Assembly (NCBI GenBank): GCA_029261035.1
Contig: JAJDCD010000004.1
Location: 132,765-196,764, forward strand
Source of the DNA: Candidatus Omnitrophota bacterium
GTDB taxonomy: Bacteria > Omnitrophota > Omnitrophia > Omnitrophales > JACROU01
Length of the DNA stretch: 64,000 nucleotides
Reading direction: 5' to 3'
The notes under the pieces were generated by a model that worked only from the letters and a program-made list of their open reading frames with translations, did not search any database and had not been told where the DNA came from. This document shows positions 7,361 through 60,439 of the stretch, one piece after another (position 1 is the first letter of the stretch; the number at the start of each line of letters is the position of its first letter). The translations under genes were made by a program, and so were the position numbers.

Positions 7361-8986
7361 TTAAGATGCGCTAGAAACAGCTTCTTCAATAAGTCCTAAT
7401 GCAATCTTACGACCTTCCACATCGACCGTTAAAATATTTACCTCAATTTCTTGATCCACTTTAAAAGAATCTTCTAAGTTTTTAGATTGAGACTCAGGAA
7501 TCTTTGAAATATGAAGCAAGCCTTCAAAGCCGCCCACTAATTCAAGAAAAACACCAAAGTTTATTACTTTAGATACCTTTCCCTTAATAACAACCCCTTC
7601 TTTAATTTCTTCTGGTATAGAAGGCCATGGGTCTTCTTCTAACTGCTTAACTCCAAGAGATATTTTTCTTTCGCCAATATCCACAGAAAGGATTTTAGCT
7701 TTTACTTTATCTCCTTTATTCACAAATTCGCTAGGATGATTGATTTTTTTCACCCAAGACATATCAGAAATGTGAACGAGCCCACCAATTCCTGGTTCTA
7801 GCTCAACGAAAGCACCGTAATCGGTAAGATTACGAACTTCACCTTCAATAGTCTCACCCTCTTTATACTTGTCGTTAGCTTCACTCCATGGATTTTGTTC
7901 AATTTGCTTAATCCCAAGAGCAATTTTACGGCTTTCTTTATCGCAGCTCAAGATGATAGCTTCAACCTCATCACCAATCTTAAGAATCTCAGATGGATGC
8001 GTAATACGTTTCGTCCAAGAAAGCTCACTGATATGAACTAGTCCTTCAATTCCTTTTTCAATTTCAATAAAAGCACCATAAGGAAGAATGTTAACTACTT
8101 TCCCTTTGACTCTTTCATTAATTGGGAATTTATCACTCACACCATCCCAAGGAGATGCTTGGCATTGTTTTAGACCTAATGAAATTCTTTCTTTCACTTT
8201 GTCAAAACCAATAACCTTTAAATCCAACTCTTGGTTTAAAGAAACGATTTCACTTGGGTGAGAAATACGCCCCCAGCTAATATCCGTGATATGAAGCAGA
8301 CCATCAATACCGCCTAGGTCAATAAAAGCACCAAAGTCTGTAATGTTCTTAACACGACCTTTAACAATTTGGCCTTCTTCAATTTCACCCAACATTTTAC
8401 TGCGCGCTTCTTGCTTTTCACCTTCGAGAAAATCTTTTCTACTTAAAACAACATTCTTTCTCTTAGAGTTAATTTTTACGATTTTAAATTGACCACCTTG
8501 CCCTAAAAATTGGTCAAGATTTTTAGTTGGTTTCAAAGCAACTAAACTAGCAGGTAGGAAAGCTTCCATCCCAACATCAACCATAAAACCACCGCGAACT
8601 TTTCTGAAGATTCGGCCTTCTACAACATCCCCCTCTTCCATCTTAGAAAGGATGTCATTCCAACATTTGACCTTATCTGCTTTTCTTTTAGAAACAACAA
8701 CCATTCCTTCATCATCTTCTTGGTTCTCTAAAAGCACATCAATCTTCATTCCAATTTCCACTGTATGCGGATCTGTAAACTCATCTAACTTTAAAACACC
8801 TTCTGATTTATAGCCAATATCGACTAACACCTCTTTATTGCTTAAAGCAACTACCTCTCCCGAGATAATTTCACCTTCAGCAAAATTCTTAAAGGTGTCT
8901 TCGTATAGAGCTAACGTACTTTCAGAAGTTGTTCCTTCTTCGAGTTCGCTTTCAGTTTTGTTAAGTTCAAGTTCAGTTGATACCAT
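7361..8986 (-). CDS. rpsA: 30S ribosomal protein S1
   Basis: 541 aa with about six tandem S1 RNA-binding repeats (recurring GxV.GxV..i.dfGaFv). Confidence 0.9.
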   Translation of the reverse strand: MVSTELELNKTESELEEGTTSESTLALYEDTFKNFAEGEIISGEVVALSNKEVLVDIGYKSEGVLKLDEFTDPHTVEIGMKIDVLLENQEDDEGMVVVSKRKADKVKCWNDILSKMEEGDVVEGRIFRKVRGGFMVDVGMEAFLPASLVALKPTKNLDQFLGQGGQFKIVKINSKRKNVVLSRKDFLEGEKQEARSKMLGEIEEGQIVKGRVKNITDFGAFIDLGGIDGLLHITDISWGRISHPSEIVSLNQELDLKVIGFDKVKERISLGLKQCQASPWDGVSDKFPINERVKGKVVNILPYGAFIEIEKGIEGLVHISELSWTKRITHPSEILKIGDEVEAIILSCDKESRKIALGIKQIEQNPWSEANDKYKEGETIEGEVRNLTDYGAFVELEPGIGGLVHISDMSWVKKINHPSEFVNKGDKVKAKILSVDIGERKISLGVKQLEEDPWPSIPEEIKEGVVIKGKVSKVINFGVFLELVGGFEGLLHISKIPESQSKNLEDSFKVDQEIEVNILTVDVEGRKIALGLIEEAVSSAS

Positions 8987-11186: not shown

Positions 11187-12203
11187 TTAAATTTCCCTGC
11201 CGACCGCTCCTGCAACCTTCTTCAACTCAGCCATCAAAAGAGCAAATTTTTCAGGAAGCAAAGACTGCGCCCCATCACTAAAAGCATCCACAGGATTATT
11301 ATGCACTTCAATCATAATCCCATCAGCCCCACCCGCCAAAGCAGCTTTCGCCAATGGCCCTACATAATCCCAACGCCCTGTCCCATGAGAAGGGTCAACC
11401 AAAATAGGTAAATGTGTTTCGCTTTTCACAACAGGAATGGCATTGAGATCCAATGTATTTCGTGTTGCTGTTTCAAAAGTTCTAATACCTCTTTCAGCAA
11501 GCATTACATTAAAGTTTCCTTTGGACAATATATACTCTGCCGAAAGCAACCACTCTTTAACGGTAGAGCTCAGTCCTCGTTTAAGTAGGGTTGGTTTTTT
11601 TGAAATACCCACCTCTCTCAATAAATCAAAATTCTGCATATTACGAGCTCCAATTTGTAACATATCCGCATACTTAGCAACTATTTCTACTTGTCTCGTA
11701 TCCATCACTTCTGTGACAACCTGTAGCCCAACCTCGTCTGCCACTTCTCTCAAATACTTCAACCCCTCTTCCCCTAAACCTTGGAAAGCGTATGGAGATG
11801 TTCTTGGTTTAAACGCTCCTCCACGCAAAAAAGTAGCCCCCGACTTTTTAACTTCCTTCGCAATCAAATAAAGCATATCTCTATTTTCAACAGAGCAAGG
11901 CCCCGCCATCACCACAACTTTTTTGCCACCCACAATGGTTCCATCATTCATTTTAAATGAAGAGCTCTCATCTTTAAACTCACGGCTCACCAATTTATAA
12001 GGCTTTTCTATAGGAACAACACTCTCTACTCCAGGAAACGTTTCTAAAGATTCAACTCGAACTTTCCCCTCTTCTCCAATAACACCAATCACAGTTTTCT
12101 CAACCCCTCGAGAAATATTAGGGGTAAACCCTAGGTCTTTAACTTTTTGAACTACATGTTCTAGCTGAACAGGAGTTGCGCTTTTTTTCATTACAATAAT
12201 CAT
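11187..12203 (-). CDS. 3-deoxy-7-phosphoheptulonate (DAHP) synthase, type I-beta, with N-terminal regulatory domain
   Basis: KDO8P/DAHP synthase core motifs ([20 protein letters not shown]). Lies within the aromatic cluster. Confidence 0.75.
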
Positions 12204-16373: not shown

Positions 16374-16390
16374 TTTTTATCCTCGGCTTA

Positions 16391-16423
16391 TTAGCGTAGA
16401 GCGTTTAGCTTGGAGCGTATAGG
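16391..16423 (-). promoter_or_regulatory. heptad-repeat element (CTNNNCG)x4 plus CTAATAA upstream of scpA
   Basis: Gene-sense CTATACG CTCCAAG CTAAACG CTCTACG CTAATAAGCCGAGGATAAAAAATG. Confidence 0.5.
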
Positions 16424-16452
16424 TTTCCTTTGTCTTTTTTAGGCAAAAGATC

Positions 16453-16483
16453 TATCCGCTCCACGCTATGCGCTAAACGCTAA
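16453..16483 (+). repeat. second heptad-repeat copy in inverted orientation, abutting the trpS stop
   Basis: CTATCCG CTCCACG CTATGCG CTAAACG CTAAT. With 16391-16423 it forms a roughly 31-bp imperfect inverted repeat around a 30-nt loop. Confidence 0.5.
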
Positions 16484-17458
16484 TTATATCCCTACTTTTT
16501 CTTTCGCTTCTTGAAGCGTCGCACTCGCAATTACTCTTGCTCGCTTCGCCCCTTCTTCTAAAATATCCGCTATTTTTCCTTTGTCCTTTTCCAACTCTTT
16601 TCTTTTTTCATAAACAGGCTCTAAGAATTTATTAAGCTCTTTCATTAAACTCTTTTTATCATCCACACAACCTAACTCAGCACTTCGACATCCTTGCTCA
16701 ATACTCGGGATTAAATCCGAATTAAAAATCTTTTGATAATAAAACACAGGACAAACTTCAGGATCCCCTGGGTCGTCTCTTCGTTTTCTCTGAGGGTCCG
16801 TCACCATACCCTTAATTTTCTTCTCTACTTCTTCTGGAGAATCAGACATGTAAATACAATTATTGTACGACTTACTCATCTTACGACCATCTGTACCAGG
16901 CAATTTTTTAACCTGGGTCAACATGGCTTGAGGTTCAGGAAATACCTCCCCGTACAAATGATTAAAACGTCTCGCAATTTCTCTCGTCAATTCCAGGTGA
17001 GGCAACTGATCTTCTCCCACCGGAACAAAATCCGCTTTGTATAACAAAATATCCGCGGCCTGTAACACAGGGTACCCTAAGAACCCATGCGTGTGTAGAT
17101 CCTTACCCTTTAACTCCTGAATCTGATCTTTATAAGTTGGATTTCTCTCCAACCAAGAAAGTGGCGTCATCATCGATAACAACAAAGCTAATTCAGCATG
17201 TTCTTTAACTTGGCTTTGAACAAAAATAGTACACTTCTCAGGATCCAAGCCCCCTGCAAGATAATCTAAAACGACTTCTATCACATTATTTCTAATTTCA
17301 GAATGAGATTCGTACTCCGTCGTTAAGGCATGCCAATCGGCAATCATAAAAAAAGCATCTTCTTCTTGAATCTTTTTCCAATTATCCAAAGCTCCTAGAA
17401 AATTACCTAAGTGCAACTTGCCTGTTGGCCTCATCCCACTTAAAACTCTTTTTTTCAT
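16484..17458 (-). CDS. trpS: tryptophan--tRNA ligase
   Basis: KMSKS motif and TrpS-like length. The track ORF extends to 17491, but the MKKRVLSGMRPTG Met at 17458 is the likelier start. Confidence 0.85.
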   Translation of the reverse strand: MKKRVLSGMRPTGKLHLGNFLGALDNWKKIQEEDAFFMIADWHALTTEYESHSEIRNNVIEVVLDYLAGGLDPEKCTIFVQSQVKEHAELALLLSMMTPLSWLERNPTYKDQIQELKGKDLHTHGFLGYPVLQAADILLYKADFVPVGEDQLPHLELTREIARRFNHLYGEVFPEPQAMLTQVKKLPGTDGRKMSKSYNNCIYMSDSPEEVEKKIKGMVTDPQRKRRDDPGDPEVCPVFYYQKIFNSDLIPSIEQGCRSAELGCVDDKKSLMKELNKFLEPVYEKRKELEKDKGKIADILEEGAKRARVIASATLQEAKEKVGI

Positions 17459-17530: not shown

Positions 17531-17565
17531 TATAGCATAAAGAGCGTGTAGCGTAGAGCGGATAG
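17531..17565 (-). promoter_or_regulatory. heptad-repeat element upstream of trpS
   Basis: Gene-sense CTATCCG CTCTACG CTACACG CTCTTTATG CTATA. Confidence 0.45.
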
Positions 17566-19698: not shown

Positions 19699-19726
19699 CT
19701 CATTTGCCTTTTTCCCCGACCCAATT

Positions 19727-19811
19727 GTCATCCCCGACTTGATCGGGGATCTAGTGTCTTTTGCATTCAACTATCCAATGGATCCCGGATCATGTCCGGG
19801 ATGACAAACTA
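19727..19811. repeat. two adjacent REP-like hairpins in opposite orientation
   Basis: GTCATCCCCGACTTGATCGGGGATCTAG (19727-19754) and GGATCCCGGATCATGTCCGGGATGACAAACT (19781-19811). Confidence 0.6.
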
Positions 19812-27639: not shown

Positions 27640-27731
27640 AACAAACCATCCCTTTTTTAACGATAAGATGCATATCTATGGAGCTTTTGTTTTCACCCCC
27701 CTACCTGCCCCCACAAGATAATAACTTCAAA

Positions 27732-27816
27732 GCTCAGAGATTGCTCTTCGCCGCGAGTTCACAAAAGTGACAATCACTTTTGTGCTGTCTGAGCGCCGGA
27801 GAGCAATCTCTGAGCG
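27732..27816 (+). repeat. nested-hairpin intergenic element, copy 1 (core CGCCGCGAGTT...CTGTCTGAGCGCC)
   Basis: Outer 17-bp inverted repeat GCTCAGAGATTGCTCTTCG/CGGAGAGCAATCTCTGAGC around the conserved core. Lies between gltX and the K-rich gene. Confidence 0.7.
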
Positions 27817-27833
27817 TAAAACCAACTCCTTAA

Positions 27834-29156
27834 TTATTCCTTAAAAGGAAGCTCCCCTAGATTTTCGATCACAAACCCTATTCTCTTAAGAACTTTCTCT
27901 TTTCCTAACAATTCCATAACCTCAAAAAGCCCCGGACTCACACCCCAACCTGTAATTGCCACTCGTATCGGATGAATCAACGTCGCCGCATTCACCCCTA
28001 ACGTTTCAGCCGTTTTCCGAACACACTCCTCTAAACCTTTTTCTGTAAAGTCGCTCAACGCTTCACATGCAGAAAGAACAGAAGTGAGAATGCGACTAAC
28101 TCCATCTACCTTTAAATATTTTTCAACAGAACTCTTGTCATACACCAAGGAATCACAAAAACAATAATCAGCTTGAATCAACACATCCTTCCACGTCTTA
28201 ATGCGTGTCTGAAAAAGCATAAACACTTTCCTAACATCTTCTTCAGAGCATCTCTCAGGAAAAAGTTTTCTGTTCTTCAAAAAAGACAACCCTTCTTCAG
28301 CACAATCTTCTGGCTTCATCTTTTTTAAATGTTCACTATTAATATAGTTTAACTTTTTTTGATTAAATCCAGCATTCGCTGAATTAACACGTTTTAGAGA
28401 AAATTTCTTAATCAGAGCTTCTTTAGAAAAAAGCTCTTCATTTCCTCCTGGCCCCCAACCCAACAGAGCCAAATAGTTCAACAAAGCTTCTGGAAGATAC
28501 CCTTCCTCTTGATAAGAGACTAAAGATACGTTGCCATGACGTTTGGATAAAGGAGCTCCGTCATCCCCCACAATCAAAGGAAGATGCGCATACTTAGGGA
28601 TCTTCCACCCAAAGGCCTCATACAAAAGAATATGCCTAGGTGTATTCGAAACATGATCTTCTCCTCGAATAACATGAGAAACCTCCATATCATGATCATC
28701 GACAACACATGCAAAATGATATGTTGGAAAACCATCCGACTTTAAAATAACTAAATCATCAAAAAGAGAAGCGTCGAATTCTATTTTCCCTTTAACCACA
28801 TCCCAGAAGACGACTTGTTTATGAGGCATTTTAAATTTTATTGCAGGCGTATCATCAACCTTGTAAGCCACCCCCTCAGCAACAAGCTGCTGAGCTAATT
28901 CTTGATAGCGAGGTAAATGCTCCGTTTGTCGTGAGATGTCCCCATCCCACTCCATACCAATCCACTTCAAACTATTCAAAATCTCATGCGTAAACTCTTC
29001 AGCGGAACGCTCTTGATCCGTATCTTCTATACGAAGAACAAATTGGCCTCCTTGATTTCGGGCGTAGAGATAGTTAAACAAAGCCGTTCGCACACCTCCA
29101 ATATGAAGATGCCCAGTGGGTGATGGGGCAAAACGTACTTTAATGTTATTAGACAT
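27834..29156 (-). CDS. gltX: glutamate--tRNA ligase
   Basis: HIGH motif PSPTGHLHIGG, a KMSKS-like LSKR and GluRS length of 440 aa. Confidence 0.85.
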   Translation of the reverse strand: MSNNIKVRFAPSPTGHLHIGGVRTALFNYLYARNQGGQFVLRIEDTDQERSAEEFTHEILNSLKWIGMEWDGDISRQTEHLPRYQELAQQLVAEGVAYKVDDTPAIKFKMPHKQVVFWDVVKGKIEFDASLFDDLVILKSDGFPTYHFACVVDDHDMEVSHVIRGEDHVSNTPRHILLYEAFGWKIPKYAHLPLIVGDDGAPLSKRHGNVSLVSYQEEGYLPEALLNYLALLGWGPGGNEELFSKEALIKKFSLKRVNSANAGFNQKKLNYINSEHLKKMKPEDCAEEGLSFLKNRKLFPERCSEEDVRKVFMLFQTRIKTWKDVLIQADYCFCDSLVYDKSSVEKYLKVDGVSRILTSVLSACEALSDFTEKGLEECVRKTAETLGVNAATLIHPIRVAITGWGVSPGLFEVMELLGKEKVLKRIGFVIENLGELPFKE

Positions 29157-33719: not shown

Positions 33720-33725
33720 TTGTCA

Positions 33726-33759
33726 CTATAGCGCACAGCGTTTAGCGTAGAGCGTATAG
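33726..33759 (-). promoter_or_regulatory. heptad-repeat element (CTNNNCG)x4 plus CTATAG immediately upstream of nadK
   Basis: Gene-sense reading CTATACG CTCTACG CTAAACG CTGTGCG CTATAGT, ending 6 nt before the ATG. Confidence 0.5.
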
Positions 33760-33890
33760 ATTCCTTTATCTTTAAATAAATTTATATTTATTGCGCGAAG
33801 CACCTTATCTACCTTATAACAAAATTTGGCTCGATGCCAAACTTTGTTACCCCTCCCCACACAAAAAAATATGTGTACTCCCTAAGGAGG

Positions 33891-33965
33891 AGGAAGCATT
33901 CCTTACCGCCGCGAGTTGCGCAGGGCAAAGCCCGAGCATGTCTGAGCGCCGGAAAGGAATACTTC
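33891..33965 (+). repeat. nested-hairpin intergenic element, copy 2
   Basis: Same conserved CCGCGAGTT / TGTCTGAGCGCC core as the other two copies but a different, self-complementary outer stem (GGAAGCATTCCTTACCG/CGGAAAGGAATACTTCC). Lies between dxs and nadK. Confidence 0.65.
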
Positions 33966-34004
33966 CGACGACTAAAACTTCCCACAACCACCCATTTTTT
34001 CCAA

Positions 34005-35891
34005 TTAACTTAAAGCAGAAAGGTCTTTAGTTTTATCTAAAATAGTTTTGGAGATCTTTTCAGGAGTAAGACCAAACTTATCAAAAATAATCTCACGCTC
34101 CCCATGCTGAATCACCTCATCCGGCACAGCAATTCGCTGAACATCCACATTCCTCAACTCATTTCTTTCACAAAATTCCAAAACACGCGCCCCTAACCCA
34201 CCCGAGTACACATGATCTTCAATCACCACCCATTTGGTAATAGACTCTGAAAGTTTTTTCAATAAAGTTTCATCTAGTGGCTTAGCAAATCTTAAGTTTA
34301 CAACCGTCGCTTGAATCCCTTGTTCTCTTAACAACTCTCTAACCACGAGCGCTCTAGAAACAAAAGACCCTATCGCCAAAATTGCTACATCATTCCCATC
34401 TGCAACAATTTCACCCTCACCAATCTTAAAGAGGTTCTTTGCTTCCCCTTCAATTTCAGGAACATTTTCTTTAGGATAACGAATTGAAAACACACCTTGA
34501 TGTTCTAAAGATAAACGCATCATCTGATTCATTTCAAAATCAGTCCAAGGACTACAAATCACAGAGTTAGGAATCACTCCTACATAACCAATATCAAACA
34601 AACCTTGATGTGTTGGACCATCAGGACCTACTACTCCAGCTCGATCCAAACAAAAGGTTACATTAACATCTTGTATTGTTACATCGTGAATCAGTTGGTC
34701 AAAAGCTCTTTGAAGAAAAGTAGAATAAATGGCACAAATGGGCTTTATCCCCGATCGGGCTAATGCTCCTGCAAATGAAACAGCATGCTGTTCAGCAATA
34801 CCAACGTCAAAAAAACGATCTGGAAATTTATCTTGGAAGGGTCTCAACCCTGTTCCTTCTCTCATCGCTGCCGTAATTGCAACAACCTTAGGATCTTCCT
34901 CTGCTAGAAGTGTCAAATTATTCACAAAACAATTGGTATAACTCAAAGGAGCTGGAGTTACTGTTGCTTTTTTCTTTGGAGCTCCTGATTCCAAATGAAA
35001 CGGCTGAACTCCATGAGAAGTTACAGGGTCTTTCTCTGCAAATTCACACCCTTTCCCCTTCTTAGTAATCAGATGAAGCAAAATAGGTTTTTTAATATCT
35101 TTGATATTTTTAAATAATTTAACCAGCTCTTTAACATCATGGCCATCTACCGGACCAAAATAGCGAAAACCTAATTCCTCAAAAACAATCCCAGGCACTA
35201 ATAAATTCTTAAAACCTTCCTCAGCATTCTTAACCAATTTTCTTAACCGAGGAAAATTATTAAGTTGTTCTTCTAATTTTTTTCTAACGCGATTATAAAT
35301 AGGGGCAGAAATAATTCTATTGAGATAAGTGCTAATTGCTCCTACATTTGGAGAAATAGACATTTCATTATCATTGAGAATACAAAGAAAATCTGTTTTG
35401 ATGTGGCCAGCGTTGTTTAAAGCTTCATAACAAACACCACCCGTTAACGCTCCATCACCAAAGATAGAAACTATTTTTTCATCTCCACCCTTCAAATCTC
35501 GGGCAACCGCAAGACCTAAACCTTGAGACACTGCTGTGGAGGCGTGTCCAACACTAAAATGATCATGAACACTTTCAGTATGGCTCGTAAAACCACTTAA
35601 ACCTTCATATGTACGAATCGTTTTCATTCGATCCCGCCTGCCCGTAATCAGCTTATGCGCATACACCTGATGACCCACATCCCAGACGAACTTATCTTTC
35701 GGAGAATCAAAAACATAATGAAGAGCCACAATCAAATCAACCGTACCCAAAGACGCCCCTAAATGCCCCCCTGTTTCAGAGGTTATCTCTACAAGCTCTT
35801 CTCTTAAACCAGCGCACACCTCGGGCAATTGCTCTATCGATAGCTTCTTTAAGTCTTCTGGGCTTTTAATCGTTTCAGACAATCGGGACAT
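34005..35891 (-). CDS. dxs: 1-deoxy-D-xylulose-5-phosphate synthase
   Basis: 628 aa with the TPP-binding GDGAL.TGG motif (GDGALTGG) and a transketolase-like C-terminus. Confidence 0.9.
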   Translation of the reverse strand: MSRLSETIKSPEDLKKLSIEQLPEVCAGLREELVEITSETGGHLGASLGTVDLIVALHYVFDSPKDKFVWDVGHQVYAHKLITGRRDRMKTIRTYEGLSGFTSHTESVHDHFSVGHASTAVSQGLGLAVARDLKGGDEKIVSIFGDGALTGGVCYEALNNAGHIKTDFLCILNDNEMSISPNVGAISTYLNRIISAPIYNRVRKKLEEQLNNFPRLRKLVKNAEEGFKNLLVPGIVFEELGFRYFGPVDGHDVKELVKLFKNIKDIKKPILLHLITKKGKGCEFAEKDPVTSHGVQPFHLESGAPKKKATVTPAPLSYTNCFVNNLTLLAEEDPKVVAITAAMREGTGLRPFQDKFPDRFFDVGIAEQHAVSFAGALARSGIKPICAIYSTFLQRAFDQLIHDVTIQDVNVTFCLDRAGVVGPDGPTHQGLFDIGYVGVIPNSVICSPWTDFEMNQMMRLSLEHQGVFSIRYPKENVPEIEGEAKNLFKIGEGEIVADGNDVAILAIGSFVSRALVVRELLREQGIQATVVNLRFAKPLDETLLKKLSESITKWVVIEDHVYSGGLGARVLEFCERNELRNVDVQRIAVPDEVIQHGEREIIFDKFGLTPEKISKTILDKTKDLSALS

Positions 35892-37028: not shown

Positions 37029-37175
37029 AAAACACCTCCTCCTTTTACGCTTAATAATTTATTTCGGATTCAAACCGCATTTCCGCACATGCGGAAATAC
37101 CTTCAACCAAAATAAATTAGGTGCTCGATGCACCTAATTTATTATCCCTCCACACCCCCTAAAGAAGTAAAGAAC

Positions 37176-37256
37176 CATGGAGTTACCCTCGCCGCGAGTT
37201 CACAAAAATCGCATTTCAATTTTTGTGCTGTCTGAGCGCCGAGGGTAACTCCATGG
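37176..37256 (+). repeat. nested-hairpin intergenic element, copy 3
   Basis: Outer stem CCATGGAGTTACCCTCG/CGAGGGTAACTCCATGG around the conserved core. Abuts the xseA stop. Two more unrelated hairpins fill 37078-37153. Confidence 0.7.
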
Positions 37257-37257
37257 T

Positions 37258-38553
37258 TCACAACAACCTCTTAACCTTCTCAACCCTCTTAACTTCCGAC
37301 TCCACAACCCCCTTACCCAACTGCGTCCTAATCATCTCCCCAACCTTCAACTGCCCAGCTTCCCTAACCGGCTTCATCTTCTCATCCACCGTAACACTAT
37401 ACCCTCTAGACAAAATCCCCAAAGGACTCAAAGCATCCAATTGGGCCAGTAATTTAGAAAATCCCGCTTTCTTTTGCAACAAAACATTACTCAACAAAGG
37501 AGTCATCTGAATTCGAGACAACTGAATTCTCTTATCCGATACCACACCCAAAAGATAATTCGACATCTGCCTCAAAAGCTCATCCAATCTCTGCCTTGCT
37601 TGTTCTACTAATCGCTCTGGTTGCGTCAGCGCATAACTCTCTTTCGCATTCGTGATTCTCTCTTTTAAATCTTCTAAAAGATTCTTAACAGCCAAAAGCA
37701 TTCTTTCTTTATTTTCTCTCAACTGCCCCAACAACTCATCTCGACTCGGAACCGCTATCTCAGCCGCTTGAGAAGGAGTCGCCGCTCTCTTATCCGCAAC
37801 AAAGTCACTGATCGTCACATCCACTTCATGGCCCACTGCAGAAATAATTGGAATTTCAGAATTAAAAATAGCACGCGCTACAACTTCTTCATTAAAAGCC
37901 CATAAATCTTCTAAACTTCCTCCTCCACGTCCCACAATCAAAACATCACATAACTTATGCTTATTCATCGACTCAATCGCTTCTACAATTTCTTCTCGAG
38001 CACCGTCCCCTTGCACTTTAACGGGGTATAATAAAATCGGTATCCCAGGGAACCTCCTCTGAGACACATTAATAATATCTCGAATAACAGCCCCTGTTGG
38101 AGACGTAATCACCCCAATTCTTTCCGGCAAAAATGGGATCTCTTTTTTATATTCTTCTTCAAACAAACCTTCATTCTTCAACTTTTCAATCAGCTGTCTC
38201 AAAGCCAGCTCTAAGGCCCCAACACCTTTCGGCTCTACTCTCTCAACAACAATCTGATAATTCCCACGCTTTTCATAAACAGTCACTTTCCCAAACACCA
38301 CAACCTGCAACCCATCTTTCATTTCAAAAGGAATTTTTGCGTTTACGTTTCTAAAAATAACTGCGGAAATTTGAGCTCCTTCATCTTTTAAACTCAAATA
38401 CATATGTCCAGAAGAATGGTGTACTAGATTAGATATTTCTCCCTCAATCCAAACAGAACCATACTGAGTTTCGAGAGAACGTCGAATTTGTCGGGTAATA
38501 TCTGAAATGGAATGGATTGTTTTTTGTTGCTCATCTTTTTCTAAATCAAGCAT
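37258..38553 (-). CDS. xseA: exodeoxyribonuclease VII large subunit
   Basis: 431 aa with an N-terminal OB fold and XseA catalytic region (VGRGGGSLEDLWAFN). Confidence 0.85.
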   Translation of the reverse strand: MLDLEKDEQQKTIHSISDITRQIRRSLETQYGSVWIEGEISNLVHHSSGHMYLSLKDEGAQISAVIFRNVNAKIPFEMKDGLQVVVFGKVTVYEKRGNYQIVVERVEPKGVGALELALRQLIEKLKNEGLFEEEYKKEIPFLPERIGVITSPTGAVIRDIINVSQRRFPGIPILLYPVKVQGDGAREEIVEAIESMNKHKLCDVLIVGRGGGSLEDLWAFNEEVVARAIFNSEIPIISAVGHEVDVTISDFVADKRAATPSQAAEIAVPSRDELLGQLRENKERMLLAVKNLLEDLKERITNAKESYALTQPERLVEQARQRLDELLRQMSNYLLGVVSDKRIQLSRIQMTPLLSNVLLQKKAGFSKLLAQLDALSPLGILSRGYSVTVDEKMKPVREAGQLKVGEMIRTQLGKGVVESEVKRVEKVKRLL

Positions 38554-39375: not shown

Positions 39376-39476
39376 AAGACTCCTCTTGTCCTGCTTATAG
39401 TTTATAGCTCTTGGCTTTTGGTTGAATTTATTATCAAAAAATGCTTTTACCAAAAGCTAAGAGCCAAAAACCATCC

Positions 39477-40106: not shown

Positions 40107-40213
40107 GTCATTGCGAGGCATTAGAAAGTCGAGCCGTGGCAATCTCAGATTAAGGGAAGAAAGGTCCGTCTCAAAACCAAGAGATTGCCGCAGCTCCTTT
40201 GTGGAAGCCTCTC
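40107..40213. repeat. nested inverted-repeat element (GTCATTGCGAGG...GCCGTGGCAAT / ATTGCCGC...CCTCTCAATGAC)
   Basis: Same architecture and end sequences as the element at 42987-43093. Confidence 0.6.
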
Positions 40214-42544: not shown

Positions 42545-43095
42545 AAGAAGATTTTGTCATCTCCTCCTTGATCCATTTGTCATCCCCGAATGCTTTAATC
42601 GGGGATCCAGTCAGACAAAACGATTAATTTAGAAATTAAATAAAGCACAAACACATGGATCCCCGCCTTCGCGGGGATGACAGAAAAGCGCGGGAAGATA
42701 CAAGAATAGGACGGTCCACCTCGAAATTATGATGGAAAATTTTATGGGTAGATTTACGCTTGTCATTATTTAATTCAAAGACCCTAGATTCCCGCCTACG
42801 CGGGAATGACAAACACTTTTATTCATTCTTGTCATCCTGAACTAGCGCCTGCCCGCCGTCTTGCCCGCCACGAAAAACGGCGGGTCCGCCAGCTTATTAG
42901 GAGGATTGGGCGGGAAGGATCTCAGACTCAGAGATTCTTCGTCGCAAAGCTCCTCAGAATGACAGCTGTGTAGAAATTTAAATCCGTCATTGCGAGGCTA
43001 AAACAAAAAGAGCCGTGGCAATTTCAGGTTTTTACTTCTTATTCATCCCGAGATTGCCACGGCTCAATATGTCGATACCTCGCAATGACAGTTTT
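42545..43095. repeat. cluster of REP-like palindromic elements (BIME-like) in the 580-bp intergenic region
   Basis: At least six hairpins with GTCATC/GATGAC-type ends: 42578-42610, 42656-42682, 42786-42812, 42830-42895, 42921-42965 and 42987-43093. Confidence 0.7.
42697..42751 (+). repeat. degenerate duplicate of the 3' end of the repeat-protein gene
   Basis: GATACAAGAATAGGACGGTCCACCTCGAAATTATGATGG..TAG closely matches the gene terminus GATACAAGAGTACGAAGGCCCTCCTCGCGATTATGATGG...TAG. Confidence 0.55.
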
Positions 43096-44089: not shown

Positions 44090-44140
44090 TCTATTTCCTC
44101 CCACTTTTTATGTATTACGAATTATATCTAAATCAGGATT

Positions 44141-44250
44141 TCCCCTCTCCCTTTTTAAGGGAGAGGGCTAGGGTGAGGGTTTGAGTTGATTTAGAATTTA
44201 CCATTAAACCACCCTCACCTTAATCCTCTCCCTCCAAAGGAAGGAGAGGA
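44141..44250. repeat. nested palindromes built from GGGAGAGG / GGTGAGGG motifs
   Basis: CCCTCTCCCTTTTTAAGGGAGAGGGCTAGGGTGAGGGT ... ACCCTCACCTTAATCCTCTCCCTCCAAAGGAAGGAGAGG. Confidence 0.5.
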
Positions 44251-44278
44251 AAATTCAAAGACATTCACTTGTCTGCCT

Positions 44279-51295: not shown

Positions 51296-52194
51296 TACTT
51301 TTTCTTCTTCCCTGACTTTAGTAACGGGAATCCTAACACACGTCTTTTTTCTAAATAGGCCTCTGCACATCCTTTGGCAATACCTCTAACACGTCCAATA
51401 TAGCGGGGCCGTTCAGTAACACTAATAGCACCACGGGCATCCAAAAGATTAAACGCGTGTGACGCTTTCATACAAAAGTCATAGGCGGGTAAAACAAGAT
51501 TTTTTTCTAAAATACGTTTTGCTTCCGATTCGTACTCATCAAAGTGACGCAACAACATCTCGACATTGGCCTCTTCAAAATTAAAAGCGGAGAACTCTTT
51601 CTCCCCTTCTAAATGAACATCGCCATAAGTTTCTTTTCCATTCCAATCAATATCGAACATCGAATCTCTGTTTTGAAGAAACATCGCAATCCGTTCTAAA
51701 CCATATGTAATTTCTATGGGGATCACTTCCAAATCAATACCACCGCATTGTTGAAAATAAGTAAACTGCGTAATTTCTAAACTATCAATCCAAACTTCCC
51801 AACCTAAACCCCAAGCCCCTAAAGTTGGAGACTCCCAGTCATCTTCCACGAAACGTAAATCAAATTCATCCACGTTAATTCCAATATAACGAAGGCTTTC
51901 TAAATAAAGTTCCTGAATGTTTTTTGGAGAGGGTTTTAGAATTACTTGATATTGATAATAGTGTTGTGTTCTCAGTGGGTTCTCACCATAACGCCCATCC
52001 GTAGGACGACGCGAAGGTTCCACATAAGCGGCACTCCAAGGTTCCGGACCTAATGCACGTAAAAAAGTATGTGGAGAGAATGTTCCCGCACCTTTTTCCA
52101 TATCATAAGGCTGTACAACGAGACACCCTTGGCGGGACCAAAACTGGTTTAACCGCTGAATCAGATCTTGAAAAGAAATAGTTTTTGTAGGCAT
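51295..52194 (-). CDS. glyQ: glycine--tRNA ligase alpha subunit
   Basis: 299 aa with a highly conserved GlyQ core ([24 protein letters not shown]). Confidence 0.9.
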
Positions 52195-52371
52195 AAGAGC
52201 CAGCTATTCTAGCAAAAAGCACCTCTCAAATCAAGAGGACTAAGCCCTTTTGAACTCAAGACTTACACAGGGCTTTAATTCCCATTTTTATAAAAAAGAG
52301 GTGGTTCGGGTTTTATCCTCTACCACCTCTTTAACTGGGAAAACTCTAATCGTTAAGAAAATATGTTCAAT

Positions 52372-52662
52372 TTACACGCGAATCTGGCTTTTAATCCTCT
52401 CAAAGGTCTTGGGGCCAATACCCTTTACATTGACGATTTCGTCAATAGAATCAAAGGTTTGATAGACCCTTCGATACTCCAGAATCCGATCCGCGTACTT
52501 AGGACCAATACCCGTAATTTGCTGCAATTCTTCCTTTGTGGCTGTATTGATATTGATCTGGGTTCCTTCAGGTTGAGGGATTTCCTCTGCATTTACTGAG
52601 GACACCCCCATCAAGGCCACCAGACCCAAACAGACTAGAATTAGCTTACTTCGATTCATCAC
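52372..52662 (-). CDS. comEA: ComEA-like helix-hairpin-helix DNA-binding protein with signal peptide
   Basis: Signal peptide plus two HhH motifs (LQQITGIGPKYADRILEYR; VNVKGIGPKTFERI). Confidence 0.7.
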   Translation of the reverse strand: MMNRSKLILVCLGLVALMGVSSVNAEEIPQPEGTQININTATKEELQQITGIGPKYADRILEYRRVYQTFDSIDEIVNVKGIGPKTFERIKSQIRV

Positions 52663-52799
52663 ACCGTTCTCCTTTCGTATTAGAGTAAAAGGAGCTTAAT
52701 TCATTATTGATTTATTGTCAATATTTAATTTAATATACTAAATATTCATATTTTGCGCTTTTTGTTTTTATTTTTCCCAATCATGTCTATTGCTTAAAC

Positions 52800-52842
52800 A
52801 GATCGATAGCGCTATAATCTTTTCACTTTGGAGGAAGTAAAT
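52800..52842 (+). promoter_or_regulatory. putative promoter/RBS for the XRE regulator gene
   Basis: TATAAT at 52813-52818 and GGAGGAAG at 52830-52837 ahead of an in-frame TTG at 52843. Confidence 0.35.
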
Positions 52843-53391
52843 TTGGATATCGGTTTTCGCATTCGACAAGTTAGGAAAGAAAAAAACATCACTCTTGTTG
52901 AGCTTTCTAAATCAACAGATGTTGCTCAAGCCACTCTCTCTCGTATTGAAACTGGAGATATGACGGGGACTTTAGAGTGTCATAGTAAAGTTGCCAACTC
53001 TCTCGGTATGAGTTTGAGCGAACTTTATGAAGGTATCGATAACCGTTCTGCTAAAACCAAGATTACCAAAAATGGAACTGCCGAACTTCTTTCTAAAAGT
53101 ACGGATCAAATCCGCAGCGAAATTTTAACTTCAAAAGCTTTAAAGAAAAAACTCCTCCCTATCAAAACAACTCTTAAACCAAATTCAAAGTCCGAACCTG
53201 AAAAGGCTGAGAAAGCGACTGAGAAATTTGTTTATTGTACAGAAGGTCAAATCACGGTTTATCTCAATAATGAAGGTCATGATTTAGAAACGGAAGAAAG
53301 TATTTATTTTGATGGGTCTTTACCACACAGCTTCGAAAACAAAACCGCTAAGGTTGCAAAACTCATTAGCGTTACTTCTCCACCCGCGTAA
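52843..53391 (+). CDS. XRE-family HTH transcriptional regulator with C-terminal cupin domain
   Basis: N-terminal HTH_XRE (IGFRIRQVRKEKNITLVELSKSTDVAQATLSRIETG) and a C-terminal cupin-like region. Start is TTG at 52843 or 52828 (non-ATG). Confidence 0.65.
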   Translation: MDIGFRIRQVRKEKNITLVELSKSTDVAQATLSRIETGDMTGTLECHSKVANSLGMSLSELYEGIDNRSAKTKITKNGTAELLSKSTDQIRSEILTSKALKKKLLPIKTTLKPNSKSEPEKAEKATEKFVYCTEGQITVYLNNEGHDLETEESIYFDGSLPHSFENKTAKVAKLISVTSPPA

Positions 53392-53407
53392 ACTTTTTTA
53401 AATCGAA

Positions 53408-54490
53408 TTATTCCTGAGCCAAAACATTTTTATAAATTTCTAATGTTTCTTTCGCTGTTTTTTCCCAGCTAAATTCTGCAGCTTTCATTTGTCCTTTATG
53501 CACCAGCTCTTTTCTTAATTGATCATCTACGAGTATGTTTTCGATACCGATCGAGATTTCTTCTATGTCGTAAGGGTTTACTAGTTCTGCTGAGTCTTTG
53601 CCTAATTCTCCGAGACTGGAGTTGTTCGAGCAAAGCACGGGTGTTCCGCAATGAAAGGCTTCGATGAGCGGTAAACCGAATCCTTCGTACAAAGAAACAA
53701 AAGCTACCATTTCGGCTGCGCTATAAGCACAGCTGAGTATTTCGTCCGAAACGAACCCGGTGGTGATGACGTCTTCTTCTAATCCGTTTTGTTTGACGGC
53801 CTTTTCGAACTCGCTACTTCCCCATTGTTTTGCGCCGACGACTAAGAGTTTGGGGATGTCTTTTCTTCTTTTTTTGACTAGGTTAAATGCTTCGAGGAGT
53901 CGGACTAAGTTTTTTCTGGGTTCGATGGTTCCGACGCACAGGACGAAGGGGTCTGTGAGTCCTAGTTCTTTTTCTAAGATTTGTTTTGCGATATCTGTTG
54001 GTTTTTTGACGATGTTGTTGTCGGGTGCGATGTAGGTTACGGATATTTTTTCGGGTGCGATGCCTAAGTGTTCGATGAGGTCTTTTCTTGAGTTTTCGGA
54101 TACGGTGATGAGGTGGTCTGCTTTTTTAAAGCATTTTGGGAGCCATTTACTCCAGTAGTAGCGTGAGCTGAAAGACAAGTTTTGAGGAAATAGGTACCCG
54201 ATGATGTCGTGGGCTGTGATGATGACTTTTGAGTGTTTGAGTTTTTTGACGCCGAAGCCGGGGACGTGGAAGATATCAGCGTTGGATTGCTTGATTATGC
54301 GTGGCAGGGTTACTGCTTCCCAGTAGAGGCGGTTTGGGGTTTTTAGGTCGCCTGTGATGTTGCCGCCTACCTTTCTTAGGTCTAGGCTTGGGTCGTTGAT
54401 TTGTTCGATTGCCTTGATTAGATTGCCTACGTAACGTGGGATTCCTGTGGCGGTTCCGGTTAGGGTGTGGGTGTCTATGGTTAGGTTCAT
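53408..54490 (-). CDS. glycosyltransferase family 4 (GT1-fold)
   Basis: EGFGLPLIEAFHCGTPVLCS signature E-x7-E region. Higher GC than the genome background. Confidence 0.75.
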   Translation of the reverse strand: MNLTIDTHTLTGTATGIPRYVGNLIKAIEQINDPSLDLRKVGGNITGDLKTPNRLYWEAVTLPRIIKQSNADIFHVPGFGVKKLKHSKVIITAHDIIGYLFPQNLSFSSRYYWSKWLPKCFKKADHLITVSENSRKDLIEHLGIAPEKISVTYIAPDNNIVKKPTDIAKQILEKELGLTDPFVLCVGTIEPRKNLVRLLEAFNLVKKRRKDIPKLLVVGAKQWGSSEFEKAVKQNGLEEDVITTGFVSDEILSCAYSAAEMVAFVSLYEGFGLPLIEAFHCGTPVLCSNNSSLGELGKDSAELVNPYDIEEISIGIENILVDDQLRKELVHKGQMKAAEFSWEKTAKETLEIYKNVLAQE

Positions 54491-54500
54491 TTTTTGGCCG

Positions 54501-54734
54501 CTATTTCGTTAATTGTATAGCAGCTGATGTCGCTGCTATCAGTATTAGAATTAAAAGGATTATGTATTTTCCTTTGTTTAGCTGGCGTTCTTGTTTTTTT
54601 AGCCAGCTTTTTACGATGGTTTGTTTTTTGTCGGAATACTCGCCTTTTGTTAGGCGGGCTTCGACTGCTTCTTTGCCTAGGAGTTTTAGGCTCTTTTCGA
54701 ATTCTTTCCAGTAGTGGGTATCTTCGTGTTCCAT
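54501..54734 (-). CDS. small tail-anchored membrane protein (hypothetical)
   Basis: 77 aa with a C-terminal TM helix IILLILILIAATSAAI. Co-directional with and immediately upstream of the GT gene. Other overlapping ORFs in 54436-54946 were rejected. Confidence 0.4.
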   Translation of the reverse strand: MEHEDTHYWKEFEKSLKLLGKEAVEARLTKGEYSDKKQTIVKSWLKKQERQLNKGKYIILLILILIAATSAAIQLTK

Positions 54735-54896
54735 GGTTATCCTCTTCGCTTTGCATGGGATTTAACGTTGGGGGTATTATACAGGAAGTGGGGGGATTTG
54801 GCACGAGTGGGGTGGTTGTTCGGTTCCCTTTGTCATCTTTGGCTTGGTTGGGGATCTGGGGGTTTTGGAGTGGTATACTTTTAGTAGAGGACGAAA

Positions 54897-55553
54897 ATGG
54901 GAAATACAATAAAAATCAAAAAACATCCTACAAAAAACAATCCTAATTATTTTTTAATAGATTCAGACTTTTTTGTTAATAGATACCTATCTAAACATTT
55001 GTCATATTTAAACCTAAACTCGGGAAATAGTGGTGAAGAATCAATAGAAAAAAGTGCTTTATGGTGGAATGAAATTAATTCTCAGCTAAAAAATGAAATA
55101 GCTTATCTATTTATTCCAAATGTTTGCATTTCAGAGACATTTAAAGTCCTAGCTAAAAGACAATACGACAAAGATGAAAAAATCATTAAGAAATATAAAT
55201 ATTACAAGGAGTTAATCGATGAAATTTCAGAAGATCTTCATGTCAACCCTAAACTTCCCGAAACACAGAAGAAAAAACAAAGAATTCATGACCTAGAAAC
55301 AAACCGTGATATTGTTATTGGAACAGATAGATTTTTAAGGTTAATAATGAAAAATGGTTATAAAACAATATCAACATTTGATTTAATGTTGCTAGTTCAT
55401 GGAAAGTTGCTTTTGAAACATTACAACTTTAATAAGAGAAATCTCTTTATTATTACAGGAGATAAAACGCTATACAATGCCTCTAAACCATTTCCTGATA
55501 TTCCACGAGTATGCTGTCCTAACATAAACTCATTTGATAGTTCATTCGATTAA
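54897..55553 (+). CDS. PIN-domain nuclease-like protein
   Basis: Acidic quartet in canonical PIN order: FLIDSDFF, ISETF, HDLETNRD, TFDLML and FIITGDKT (T-x-D). About 30% GC. Confidence 0.5.
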   Translation: MGNTIKIKKHPTKNNPNYFLIDSDFFVNRYLSKHLSYLNLNSGNSGEESIEKSALWWNEINSQLKNEIAYLFIPNVCISETFKVLAKRQYDKDEKIIKKYKYYKELIDEISEDLHVNPKLPETQKKKQRIHDLETNRDIVIGTDRFLRLIMKNGYKTISTFDLMLLVHGKLLLKHYNFNKRNLFIITGDKTLYNASKPFPDIPRVCCPNINSFDSSFD

Positions 55554-55643
55554 ACCCAACGCATTCAATTTTAAAGGTTTAATACCAAAATCGAATTCTA
55601 GATAGATTGGATACGTAGTTTACGAGCGTTAAAACAATAACTG

Positions 55644-58058: not shown

Positions 58059-58233
58059 TCTCCATTAATAAATTATTTTTACAGTCCTTCAGTTGTTGCA
58101 GCCTCTGGGCTCAGTTGTTGAATGTTAAAAAAACATTCACTAAACTTTTAACTTATAACTCTCTATTCCTTTTATATTCTTAGAAATAAATTTTGTCAAG
58201 GAATCAAGTTTTTCTGAGGGTATTTTCAAGCCT

Positions 58234-58260
58234 GGATTCCCACCTTCACGGGAATGACAA
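58234..58260 (+). repeat. REP-like hairpin (GGATTCCCACCTTCACGGGAATGACAA)
   Basis: Family member with the CCTGGATTCCC lead-in. Confidence 0.55.
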
Positions 58261-58330
58261 TTGTCTTGGATTCAGTCGTTAAATATCTAATTATACCTCT
58301 TCCCCCTCCTAAGTACGTTATAATTGGGTT

Positions 58331-59941
58331 ATGAAGAGCTACCGTTTCTTATTCACCCTTCTTTTACTCTACCCCTTTCTCATTCTCACCCTTTCTGCTT
58401 TTCGGCCGGGGCCTGTGAACTCTCCTTTTGTGGAATATCAGGAGCCGGAGTTTTTGACTTATGAGGAGCTTCAGGAGTTGAGTCGGAATCCGGAGCCAAA
58501 TCGGAAGTTGAAGGCTAAGCTTGAGCGATTTTGGAAGACCCCTATTATTAGTAATGAGGCTTATATTCAAGGGATGATGCCTGCTGTGAAGAAAAATCGG
58601 CGTTTGGGCACCTTTATGCGAGTTGCGAGTTGGAATATTGAGAAGTCTCTTAATATTCCAGATGCGATTACTGTGTTTACTTCTCCTGAAAAATTTAAGG
58701 GTTTGATTAACACAGATATTCCTGTGGGTTCTACGGATTATGAATATATTCTTTTGCAGCAAAAACGGTTGATGACTTCGGATGTTGTGATCTTGCAGGA
58801 AATGGATATCGGGGTTAAACGATCGGGTTATAGGAATGCGACTGCCGATTTAGCCAAGGCGATGAATATGAATTACGCCTATGGGCCAGAACAGTTGGAA
58901 GTGGATCCTGTGATTCTGAGTCTTGAGAGTTTAAAGTTTGAAGATGATCGTTTGGATGAGGAAGCTACAAAATACTTTAGAGCCGACCCTGAGAAAGTGA
59001 AAGGGGTTTTTGGGAGTGCTGTTTTGTCTAAGTACCCTATCAAGTCTGCAGAGGTGTTTCAGTTAGAGACTCAGACTTATGATTGGTACTCCGGAGAGAT
59101 AAAGAAAACTACGTTTCTTGAGAAAGGGCGAAGAACGGGTTCGAAGACTGTTTTTAAGAATGAGTTGACGCGTGAGGTTAAGGTTGGCGGGCGAATTTTT
59201 TTTAGAGTGGATTTGTATGTGCCTGAGCTTCCGAATGAGACGTTGACGGTGATTAATGTGCATCTTGAGATTAAGTGTACGCCTAAAGGGCGTGAAATGC
59301 AGATGAAAGAGATTTTGAGTTATATTAAGGATATTAAGAATCCGGTGATTTTGGCTGGGGATTTTAATTCTGCCCCTACCGATTTGAGTCCGACGTCGGT
59401 GACTCGGGTTGTGAAACGGACGGCAAAGAATCCGACGACTTGGCTTTCTGTTGGGATTAATTATTTTACGGCTGAGGGGGCTACGATTAACACTTCCCGC
59501 TTTCTTTCTAATGCGACGAAGAATTTTCAAAATCCTTTGGCGAAGCATATTCCGATTGTGGCTCCGAATGCCGTTAAGGGGTTGTTTGATCGGGTTGAGT
59601 ATTTTCGGTTTAAGGATGATGGGGTTTTTGATTTTCGTGGGAATGGTGAAAGGTCGATGAATGGGAAGGATAAGAAGTTGGCTAATTCGAATGAGAGGGA
59701 TTTGATTGGGTTTAAGACGACGTTTCGTGTGAGACGGCCTATTGGGTTTATTGGGAAGTATCGATTGGATTGGATTTTTGTGAAATCGTTTTTGAAGGAT
59801 GGGAACGATGATTTTGGGTCGTATCGGTTTGCTCCGCATTTTGGGGAGACGCTTGAGGAGATGAATACGAGTTTGGTGAGAGCGGTTTCGGATCATCATC
59901 CGAATGTGGTGGATTTGCCTTTTGAGGAGCCGGGGGTTTAG
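58331..59941 (+). CDS. secreted endonuclease/exonuclease/phosphatase (EEP) family protein
   Basis: Signal peptide and EEP motifs: VASWNIE, ILQEMD, VINVHLE, AGDFNS and SDHHP. GC-rich and G+T-rich coding strand. Antisense ORFs 58364-58762 and 59063-60043 rejected. Confidence 0.65.
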   Translation: MKSYRFLFTLLLLYPFLILTLSAFRPGPVNSPFVEYQEPEFLTYEELQELSRNPEPNRKLKAKLERFWKTPIISNEAYIQGMMPAVKKNRRLGTFMRVASWNIEKSLNIPDAITVFTSPEKFKGLINTDIPVGSTDYEYILLQQKRLMTSDVVILQEMDIGVKRSGYRNATADLAKAMNMNYAYGPEQLEVDPVILSLESLKFEDDRLDEEATKYFRADPEKVKGVFGSAVLSKYPIKSAEVFQLETQTYDWYSGEIKKTTFLEKGRRTGSKTVFKNELTREVKVGGRIFFRVDLYVPELPNETLTVINVHLEIKCTPKGREMQMKEILSYIKDIKNPVILAGDFNSAPTDLSPTSVTRVVKRTAKNPTTWLSVGINYFTAEGATINTSRFLSNATKNFQNPLAKHIPIVAPNAVKGLFDRVEYFRFKDDGVFDFRGNGERSMNGKDKKLANSNERDLIGFKTTFRVRRPIGFIGKYRLDWIFVKSFLKDGNDDFGSYRFAPHFGETLEEMNTSLVRAVSDHHPNVVDLPFEEPGV

Positions 59942-59956
59942 GGAGTAATCGATTGT

Positions 59957-60033
59957 CATTCTGAGGGATTTGGCAAATGCGCCGAAGAATCTTTTTGTCA
60001 GAGATCCTTCACTGCGTTCAGGATGACAGGGGG
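59957..60033 (+). repeat. two-hairpin intergenic element, copy B
   Basis: GTCATTCTGAGG...GAAGAATCT...AGATCCTTCACTGCGTTCAGGATGACA, matching copy A at 49063-49136. Confidence 0.65.
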
Positions 60034-60040
60034 TTATATG

Positions 60041-60438: not shown

Positions 60439-60439
60439 T

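Follow-up and report, generated by a model that had tools for sequence, protein, structure and literature searches.

The REP, BIME and REPIN sequences of Enterobacteria and Pseudomonas are mobilised by RAYT, a Y1/HUH transposase, and are thought to be handled as folded single strands. REPs are mostly restricted to a genus or family, and the RAYT gene associated with them is typically flanked by REPs. Bacterial MITEs occur in tens to hundreds of copies, with conserved terminal inverted repeats and direct target-site duplications. Mobile DNA can also land in extragenic palindromes in a fixed orientation, as IS1397 and ISKpn1 of the IS3 family and members of IS110/IS1111 do. In integrons, attC sites carry conserved boxes (RYYYAAC and GTTRRRY) at the base of a hairpin with a variable middle, and arrays of cassettes stand beside intI. 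In the REPs that one study describes, the whole palindrome is conserved and a conserved GTAG or CGTC tag stands at one end (PMC3733652), and another records ISPpu9 copies inserted in REP sequences (PMC12288879).

Here we analyse a small hairpin element that occurs three times in a 64-kb stretch of DNA (the window), which its best named homologues assign to Candidatus Omnitrophota. On the plus strand, copy 1 reads 5'-arm-GCCGCGAGTT-hairpin-CTGTCTGAGCGCC-arm-3', and the other two copies have the same orientation. The copies and their parts are:

27732..27815, motifs read on the plus strand, genes on the minus strand: copy 1, in the spacer from gltX to the next gene (EF-Tu domain 2)
27732-27749 and 27798-27815: arms of copy 1, 18 bp with one G.T
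27750-27759: core 5' half of copy 1
27760-27784: inner hairpin of copy 1
27785-27797: core 3' half of copy 1
33892..33966, orientation as copy 1: copy 2, in the spacer from dxs to the NAD kinase gene
33892-33907 and 33951-33966: arms of copy 2, 16 positions with mismatches A.A and C.A
33908-33917: core 5' half of copy 2
33918-33938: inner hairpin of copy 2, GGGCAAAGCCC type
33939-33950: core 3' half of copy 2
37172..37259, orientation as copy 1: copy 3, in the spacer from xseA to xseB
37172-37190 and 37241-37259: arms of copy 3, 19 bp with no mismatch
37191-37200: core 5' half of copy 3
37201-37227: inner hairpin of copy 3
37228-37240: core 3' half of copy 3

Three copies in the window and a wider family

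The original prediction, made from the window alone, had proposed three copies of one structured element, and the copies are real, with their sequences where it had placed them. GCCGCGAGTT has exactly three exact occurrences in the 64 kb (at 27750, 33908 and 37191), and five matches with at most one mismatch against 1.3 expected. TGTCTGAGCGCC also has exactly three (at 27786, 33939 and 37229), always on the plus strand and 21-28 nt after GCCGCGAGTT. A covariance model of 88 copies (R1) gave bit scores of 68.1 for copy 1, 52.3 for copy 2 and 71.4 for copy 3, and a covariance-model search of the 64 kb with filters off found nothing else above 20 bits, and hence no fourth copy. Pfam bore out the gene names that had been given (gltX, dxs, nadK as NAD kinase, xseA and xseB), and what had been called a K-rich gene after gltX matches EF-Tu domain 2. 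The window copies do all lie in one orientation within spacers of co-directional operons, as had been stated, each beginning 0-39 nt past a minus-strand stop codon (of gltX, dxs or xseA). Copy 1 lies 18 nt past the gltX stop (27834-27836) and 92 nt short of the next start (27639), copy 2 lies 38 nt past the dxs stop (34005-34007), and the stem of copy 3 takes in two bases of the xseA stop codon (37258-37260).

The outer stems are long, self-complementary and unrelated to one another, as predicted, but their length had been put too low, at 13-17 bp, against the 18 bp, 16 positions and 19 bp that we found. The inner hairpin is of the CACAAAA...TTTTGTG type in copies 1 and 3 and not in copy 2, and the arms differ in all three. 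The core, described as single-stranded, is indeed conserved but is partly paired, with 3+2 bp predicted, broken by C.C and G.A mismatches and one bulged G. Folding energies of the three copies range from -32 to -55 kcal/mol, and on either strand the z-scores against shuffled sequence run from -3.6 to -10. Directly past the stems the mRNA strand reads UUUGAAGUU, UCCUCCUU and UCUUUACUU, which are not clear U-tracts, the terminator-consensus scan being unable to score such large loops. Canonical terminators occur elsewhere in the window, for example at 60402-60439.

The window copies are members of a family of small, repeated hairpin elements that had not been catalogued before and that spans at least five bacterial phyla. 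When species-representative genomes were scanned once for both half-sites in exact form, at least 107 loci were returned. More than 100 further copies with a flanking stem are among the matches listed, and the conserved core with variable closing stems is, as had been claimed, a real and non-random structured element; about a dozen matches arise by coincidence within coding sequence, for instance where a conserved protein C-terminus ends in ...VDV*. The hosts are Atopobiaceae, Omnitrophota, Eisenbacteria, Planctomycetota (a MAG) and Gemmatimonadota (a Longimicrobiales MAG). Atopobiaceae hosts (Olsenella, Thermophilibacter) carry many copies per genome, roughly 100 by a rough extrapolation. Model R1 gave 118 matches in 730 kb of family loci, variant and decayed cores included, among them the variant core GCGCGCAGTT...CTGTTTGAGCAC. 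An extended form, GTT-CCGCAG-stem-CGAGGAC-TGTC, with a second conserved internal loop, is present in Atopobiaceae, Omnitrophota, Eisenbacteria-like and Longimicrobiales copies.

No copy was found on plasmids, viral contigs gave one match, stem-less and taken as chance, and a metagenome scan for the window-type inner hairpin gave zero matches. Comparison with Rfam, which the original prediction had suggested, matched no Rfam 15 family: at the gathering threshold the whole window contained only four tRNAs, 17 family loci gave no match, and three copies scanned at E<=10 gave only generic miRNA-hairpin matches far under threshold; window and non-window copies alike had no match at either setting. 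Among the Rfam ribozymes and mobile RNAs considered and set aside (hammerhead, twister, twister-sister, pistol, hatchet, HEARO and IS605-associated), no model matched. Full-text literature searches for the core sequences and for repeats in these taxa returned only unrelated primers and papers.

The cassette and its arms have separate histories

Across the family, a cassette of ~45-60 nt always occupies the middle of a long palindrome that is specific to its locus and usually follows closely on a gene. It comprises imperfect 7-bp ends, CCGCCGC...GCGCCGG, which match at six of seven positions, the 5' half-site GCGAGTT, an inner hairpin and the 3' half-site CTGTCTGAGCG. About 23 nucleotides are invariant, mostly in internal loops between the two helices, and unpaired nucleotides are identical across phyla. 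The sequences just outside the cassette are reverse complements of each other, not direct repeats. The half-sites stand 10 to more than 60 nt apart, a distance set by the inner hairpin, and are therefore brought together only by the folding of one strand, so that the cassette would have to be recognised as a folded single strand.

The outer stem has a median of 19 near-perfect base pairs. Among window copies, and likewise among those of Atopobiaceae, the arms cease to resemble one another 2-7 bp out from the core. Double-sided changes occur at 13 of the 14 modelled variable stem positions, with all four Watson-Crick pair types present. Stem cells are paired in 92.3% of cases against 68.8% in column shuffles, a level that 0 of 500 shuffles reach, and pairing drops to 34-45% when partners are slid by 1-3 columns. 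Such statistics alone would pass as strong evidence for a structured RNA, and the covariation of the stems had indeed been attributed to selection on a folded structure. That attribution fails on the way in which cassettes and stems are combined. Four inner-hairpin types account for 50 of the 77 Atopobiaceae copies, and in these hosts inner hairpins can be identical over 24-28 nt, loops included, at different loci with wholly different arms; the CTTGCCGAGCGCCCTTCTCGGCAAGC inner hairpin, for instance, has five occurrences in four unrelated arms. At the locus 3' of nrdD, the same 23-bp arms are found in six species with three different cassettes. Identical inner hairpins in unrelated stems indicate that core and inner hairpin were copied as a unit, with stems specific to the locus; independent compensatory evolution would have diversified the inner hairpin too. 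The cassette has been copied between loci, by transposition or conversion, and the arms belong to the locus.

Arms are nonetheless shared over 13-18 bp in two genomes. Omnitrophota Bin_214 has at least seven near-identical copies, arms and ~45 nt of flank included, several of them at or near contig ends, and in one Eisenbacteria MAG three loci have 13-14 bp of arm in common, beyond which each adds a 6-bp palindromic extension of its own. Between orthologous copies, the arms differ at ~5 of 26 positions, and each change is compensated.

Almost all of the further copies recovered by the genome scan keep a near-perfect outer stem, yet we judge this covariation to be poor evidence for selection on the fold. 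The original prediction had also counted covariation against a MITE, an argument undone by the copying of cassettes between loci, presence and absence at orthologous sites, decayed copies and the stems shared in some genomes; a MITE with target-site duplications had been named as the contrary case, and no direct target-site duplications were found. Its alternative reading, a small element inserted into hairpin apexes, fits better, although no orthologous site with the same arms but no cassette was found. In 541 kb from the same genomes there are 30 perfect hairpins that hold no cassette, with stems from 11 to 52 bp and for the most part of 11-20 bp.

Several loci carry partial or inverted copies. 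At the nrdD 3' locus of seven Atopobiaceae (L034, L064, L068, L071, L076, L085 and L075), ACTCGCGGCGG, the reverse complement of the core 5' half, precedes the GCCGCGAGTT-side arm. We first read this as chance and later as a possible inverted partial copy; it may be what is left of an inverted partner, or have arisen by fold-back duplication across the arm. In L041 (6643-6855), neighbouring inverted copies have arm segments in common, and in L024 and L096 the full copy is immediately preceded by truncated copies of the 5' half, a pattern that suggests recombination or slippage between adjacent copies. We also considered GGCGAGAAGG as a separate REP family and rejected it, since all 14 of its inverted pairs have the cassette between them and its solitary occurrences are consistent with frequent G-E-K codons.

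Orientation, occupancy and the window spacers

Gene ends in the high-GC loci, which are mostly from Atopobiaceae, were taken from crude GC3-based gene calls. By these calls the adjacent gene end lies on the GTCTGAGCGCC side only in 48 copies, on both sides in 12, and on the opposite side only in 10, the Atopobiaceae ones of which are at locus edges or are borderline calls. In ~20 inverted pairs, from roughly a dozen independent loci, the GTCTGAGCGCC side always points outward, towards the flanking genes, and the copies of the window and of Bin_214 obey the same rule. This very strong bias points to selection or a mechanism acting through transcription. Among Eisenbacteria copies, five are reversed inside co-directional operons, three obey the rule, and one lies between divergent genes. 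As for the strand that is read, one stem position shows 35 G.U against 1 A.C on the plus strand, antisense to the upstream gene, and the cases counted may go back to a small number of sub-family founders. At a second core pair the signal is reversed in one of the pairing registers, and overall folding energies show no strand preference, so we do not call the strand.

The neighbouring genes are ordinary and unrelated (PFOR, rubredoxin, HtpG, YchF, MFS transporters, nrdD and others), and a riboswitch or leader reading was dropped because the downstream genes are unrelated. Within the sampled loci of 8-20 kb, no transposase or recombinase lies beside the copies and no RAYT gene was seen among the neighbours. 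A search for an autonomous long version found no half-site pair flanking a gene. In one Omnitrophota MAG (L012, 938-1678), a protein with an EcoRII C-terminal domain adjoins a copy, probably by coincidence.

As mobile repeats in general do, the element shows presence and absence at orthologous sites together with near-identical copies at non-orthologous ones. Several orthologous sites in Atopobiaceae lack the whole hairpin, arms included; these sometimes keep 9-15 nt of one distal arm and may be deletions rather than pre-insertion states. Truncated remnants stand at other Atopobiaceae orthologous sites, and decayed cores are common to orthologues, so selection does not maintain such copies. 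Whether the element was gained or lost can be told only for the spacers of the window, which are:

27640..27833, minus strand: spacer past gltX, 194 nt, carrying copy 1
33720..34004, minus strand: dxs-nadK spacer, 285 nt, with copy 2 and other repeat motifs
37029..37257, minus strand: xseA-xseB spacer, 229 nt, with copy 3 and other repeat motifs

No copy occurs in 98 kb from more distant Omnitrophota relatives, and in three such relatives xseA and xseB overlap by 16 nt and dxs and nadK by 4-28 nt; set against these overlaps, the 229- and 285-nt spacers are derived. Relatives also have a HIT-family gene (115 aa) between gltX and the EF-Tu-domain-2 gene (L190 18333-18680, L193 20030-20377). This gene is missing from the window, where copy 1 lies in the spacer that replaces it. 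The three spacers of the window are thus derived insertions into a formerly compact operon, and they are mosaics of several repeat motifs, as in BIMEs.

The closest relative found (L110; syntenic, dxs 80% identical) has no copy either. Its xseA-xseB spacer of 106 nt and its dxs-nadK spacer of ~23 nt each hold a hairpin repeat unlike that of the window, and past gltX, where the window has copy 1, it carries a different, 95-nt MITE-like hairpin. Past xseA and past dxs stands a 13-bp REP-like hairpin, GGGACGGTTCTAG...CTAGAACCGTCCC (8706-8738 and 11893-11925; over both sites GGGACGGTTCT(G/A)G-4 nt-CTAGAACCGTCCC), which is absent from the window. To judge by these sequences, junctions between genes of this operon seem to act as hot spots for hairpin repeats of various kinds.

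Other repeats were seen in the window. A second MITE-like hairpin family, TGTCATCCCGGACTTGATCCGGGATC...GATCCCGGATCAAGTCCGGGATGACA, has one copy there (19725-19807) and three in the 22 kb of L110 (2524-2604, 17780-17860 and 19014-19096), one of those three lying at the gltX 3' junction, exactly the place of copy 1 in the window. TACGCTCTACGCTAAACGC occurs four times within three mismatches, where none is expected (33738-33756, 16401-16419, 16462-16480 and 17544-17562); one occurrence is in the dxs-nadK spacer, and two form an inverted repeat at 16390-16484. Long imperfect inverted repeats with arms of 16-49 nt lie at 42980-43095, 40131-40196, 62605-62726, 44139-44252 and 39397-39474, and two of them have GAGCCGTGGCAAT(C/T)TC / GAGATTGCC in common. 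Hairpin repeat families abound in the genome of the window. Each copy of the element is followed on the mRNA strand by a G-rich block, GTGTGGGGAGGGG, GGGGGTGTGGAGGG and GTGGGGGCAGGTAGGGGGG (within the regions 33820-33866, 37111-37160 and 27694-27720), and after copies 2 and 3 the block is followed by a second hairpin with the same apex, GCATCGAGC, and then a U-rich tail. This apex 9-mer occurs exactly in only those two places in the window, and the repeated unit in the window lineage may be longer than the hairpin. Plus-strand GC skew runs from -0.17 to -0.30 up to ~52 kb and then from ~0 to +0.07 (52000-64000), a shift possibly due to a replication landmark, to an inversion or to foreign DNA.

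Interpretation and comparison with known systems

On balance we lean, by a little, towards the element being a non-autonomous, selfish mobile cassette of the REP/BIME/MITE-like kind, recognised when folded and with REP-like side effects on transcripts. Recognition in the folded state only would call for a structure-specific DNA enzyme that acts in trans, is not encoded nearby and copies the cassette; an HUH/Y1 transposase, an IS110-like recombinase and a tyrosine recombinase are candidates. The arms could be pre-existing terminator-like hairpins. Alternatively, fold-back (template-switch) copying of one flank could create them and preserve their perfect pairing, an option supported by the compensated differences between orthologous arms and by the locus-specific palindromic extensions. 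Once inserted, the stem-loop in the mRNA would act as REPs do, as a barrier to 3' exonucleases or a partial terminator, and the insertion would uncouple formerly translationally coupled genes. By analogy with REPs, a long stem-loop just past a stop codon probably affects mRNA 3' ends, and such effects would explain the orientation bias by selection. A more far-reaching proposal, which we put forward tentatively and rather doubt, is that this is a new mobile unit, a ~50-nt cassette that homes to hairpin apexes or builds its own palindromic arms and is read only as a folded single strand by an enzyme conserved in at least five phyla, or else that the same fold is a new catalytic or protein-binding nucleic acid.

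The bias in orientation could instead reflect a cis-acting structured RNA, part of the 3' UTR of the upstream gene or of an intercistronic spacer, whose conserved internal loops would bind a conserved protein or RNase. Such an RNA would mark a site of processing, stabilise the transcript or terminate it without a U-tract, and its repeat-like spread would be secondary. Consistent with this, the window copies all lie 0-39 nt past stops in co-directional operons, the gene end abuts the GTCTGAGCGCC side in 60 high-GC copies against 10 in which it abuts only the other, the GTCTGAGCGCC side is outward in all of the ~20 inverted pairs, orthologues keep the core unchanged as arms and loops vary, and the folding z-scores are very strong. 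We nevertheless consider a role in cis unlikely, given both orientations within operons of one Eisenbacteria genome and a copy between divergent genes, decayed copies that persist in orthologues, and the absence of the element from the same operon in all relatives, with overlapping genes in the more distant ones. The neighbouring genes have no function in common, the 35 G.U against 1 A.C favour the strand antisense to the upstream gene, and folding energy shows no strand preference.

Spread might also have required no enzyme, proceeding by template switching or gene conversion between hairpin apexes, with the core kept by descent and concerted evolution. The fold-back copying involved is quasipalindrome correction, and the differences between orthologous arms (~5 of 26 positions, all compensated), the inverted partial core copy on the far side of the nrdD arm and the neighbouring inverted copies with common arm segments in L041 all agree with it. 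Such a process leaves unexplained both the identical unpaired bases across five phyla and the first arrival at new loci and genomes, however, and the homology available for conversion is only 10-13 nt per side; we regard it as improbable. Lastly, hammerhead and twister ribozymes are carried on repeats, and the core might likewise be a repeat-borne RNA, either a small ribozyme that cleaves itself or one with some other catalytic or ligand-binding function. Its patchy, multi-phylum, multi-copy distribution, the ~23 invariant nucleotides in internal loops with an extended form (CCGCAG...CGAGGAC) common to four phyla, and the G.A mismatches and bulged G on the plus strand could all be read in this way. 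But no Rfam 15 ribozyme model matched, the core motifs misfit the hammerhead consensus by inspection, and the candidate active strand is antisense to genes in most lineages and would thus rarely be transcribed, leaving this the faintest of the possibilities.

If the reading as a mobile cassette holds, it carries a caution for the discovery of RNA motifs, as perfect covariation of a closing stem can then come from a conserved cassette that enters various palindromes or makes them itself; judged by covariation scores alone, the element would have been accepted as a structured RNA. Unpaired bases identical across phyla would likewise imply a conserved factor that reads the folded single strand, and finding it would lengthen the short list of structure-reading DNA and RNA enzymes. 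The insertions would have split the formerly overlapping, presumably translationally coupled pairs xseA/xseB and dxs/nadK, a case of repeats remodelling operons.

Analogies in function only are offered by the RNase III sites between the cistrons of phage T7 and by mRNA stabilisers of the REP type, which likewise place a long stem with a conserved asymmetric internal loop within a polycistronic mRNA, between its cistrons. The element differs in being absent from the operons of relatives and in occurring in both orientations in one phylum. A kink-turn of the L7Ae type, in which a Watson-Crick stem and a 3-nt bulge lead to tandem sheared G.A/A.G pairs and a second stem, was rejected on inspection of both strands: on the plus strand GA/GA can be opposed, but the adjoining stem needs G.G, U.U and U.C, and the mRNA strand has UC where GA is needed.

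Recombination sites read as folded single-stranded DNA, namely the attC sites of integrons and the attP of CTX phage in its folded state, resemble the element in that the features by which the hairpin is recognised exist only once one strand folds. Like attC, the element lies directly 3' of an ORF in a fixed orientation and combines variable sequence with conserved structure, and its weak strand signal also favours the strand antisense to the upstream gene. The arrangement is the inverse of attC, however, with conservation at the centre and variability at the base, and the flanking genes are syntenic housekeeping genes rather than cassettes, with no integrase nearby. The insertion sequences that home to palindromes are 1-1.5 kb long and encode their own transposase, whereas the insert here is ~50 nt and gene-less.

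With REP, BIME and REPIN sequences the element shares the form of a short GC-rich extragenic hairpin, multi-copy, past genes or between convergent genes and often in inverted pairs, embedded in mosaic spacers with other motifs and transcribed as a stem-loop. In contrast to REPs, in which the palindrome is conserved as a whole, conservation is confined to the inner cassette, the outer 10-25 bp differ from locus to locus and one identical core recurs across the phyla; the identity of its unpaired bases exceeds what REPs usually show and counts against the REP-like reading. No conserved tag of the GTAG/CGTC type was found beside the arms. With MITEs (Correia/NEMIS, RUP, BOX) it has in common that it is non-autonomous, hairpin-forming and intergenic and numbers tens to hundreds of copies, with decayed copies and presence or absence among relatives, but its conserved ends are only ~7 bp and imperfect, and its flanks are inverted rather than direct. 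Although it departs from both groups in the very features that define them, the element works most like REP/BIME sequences and MITEs.
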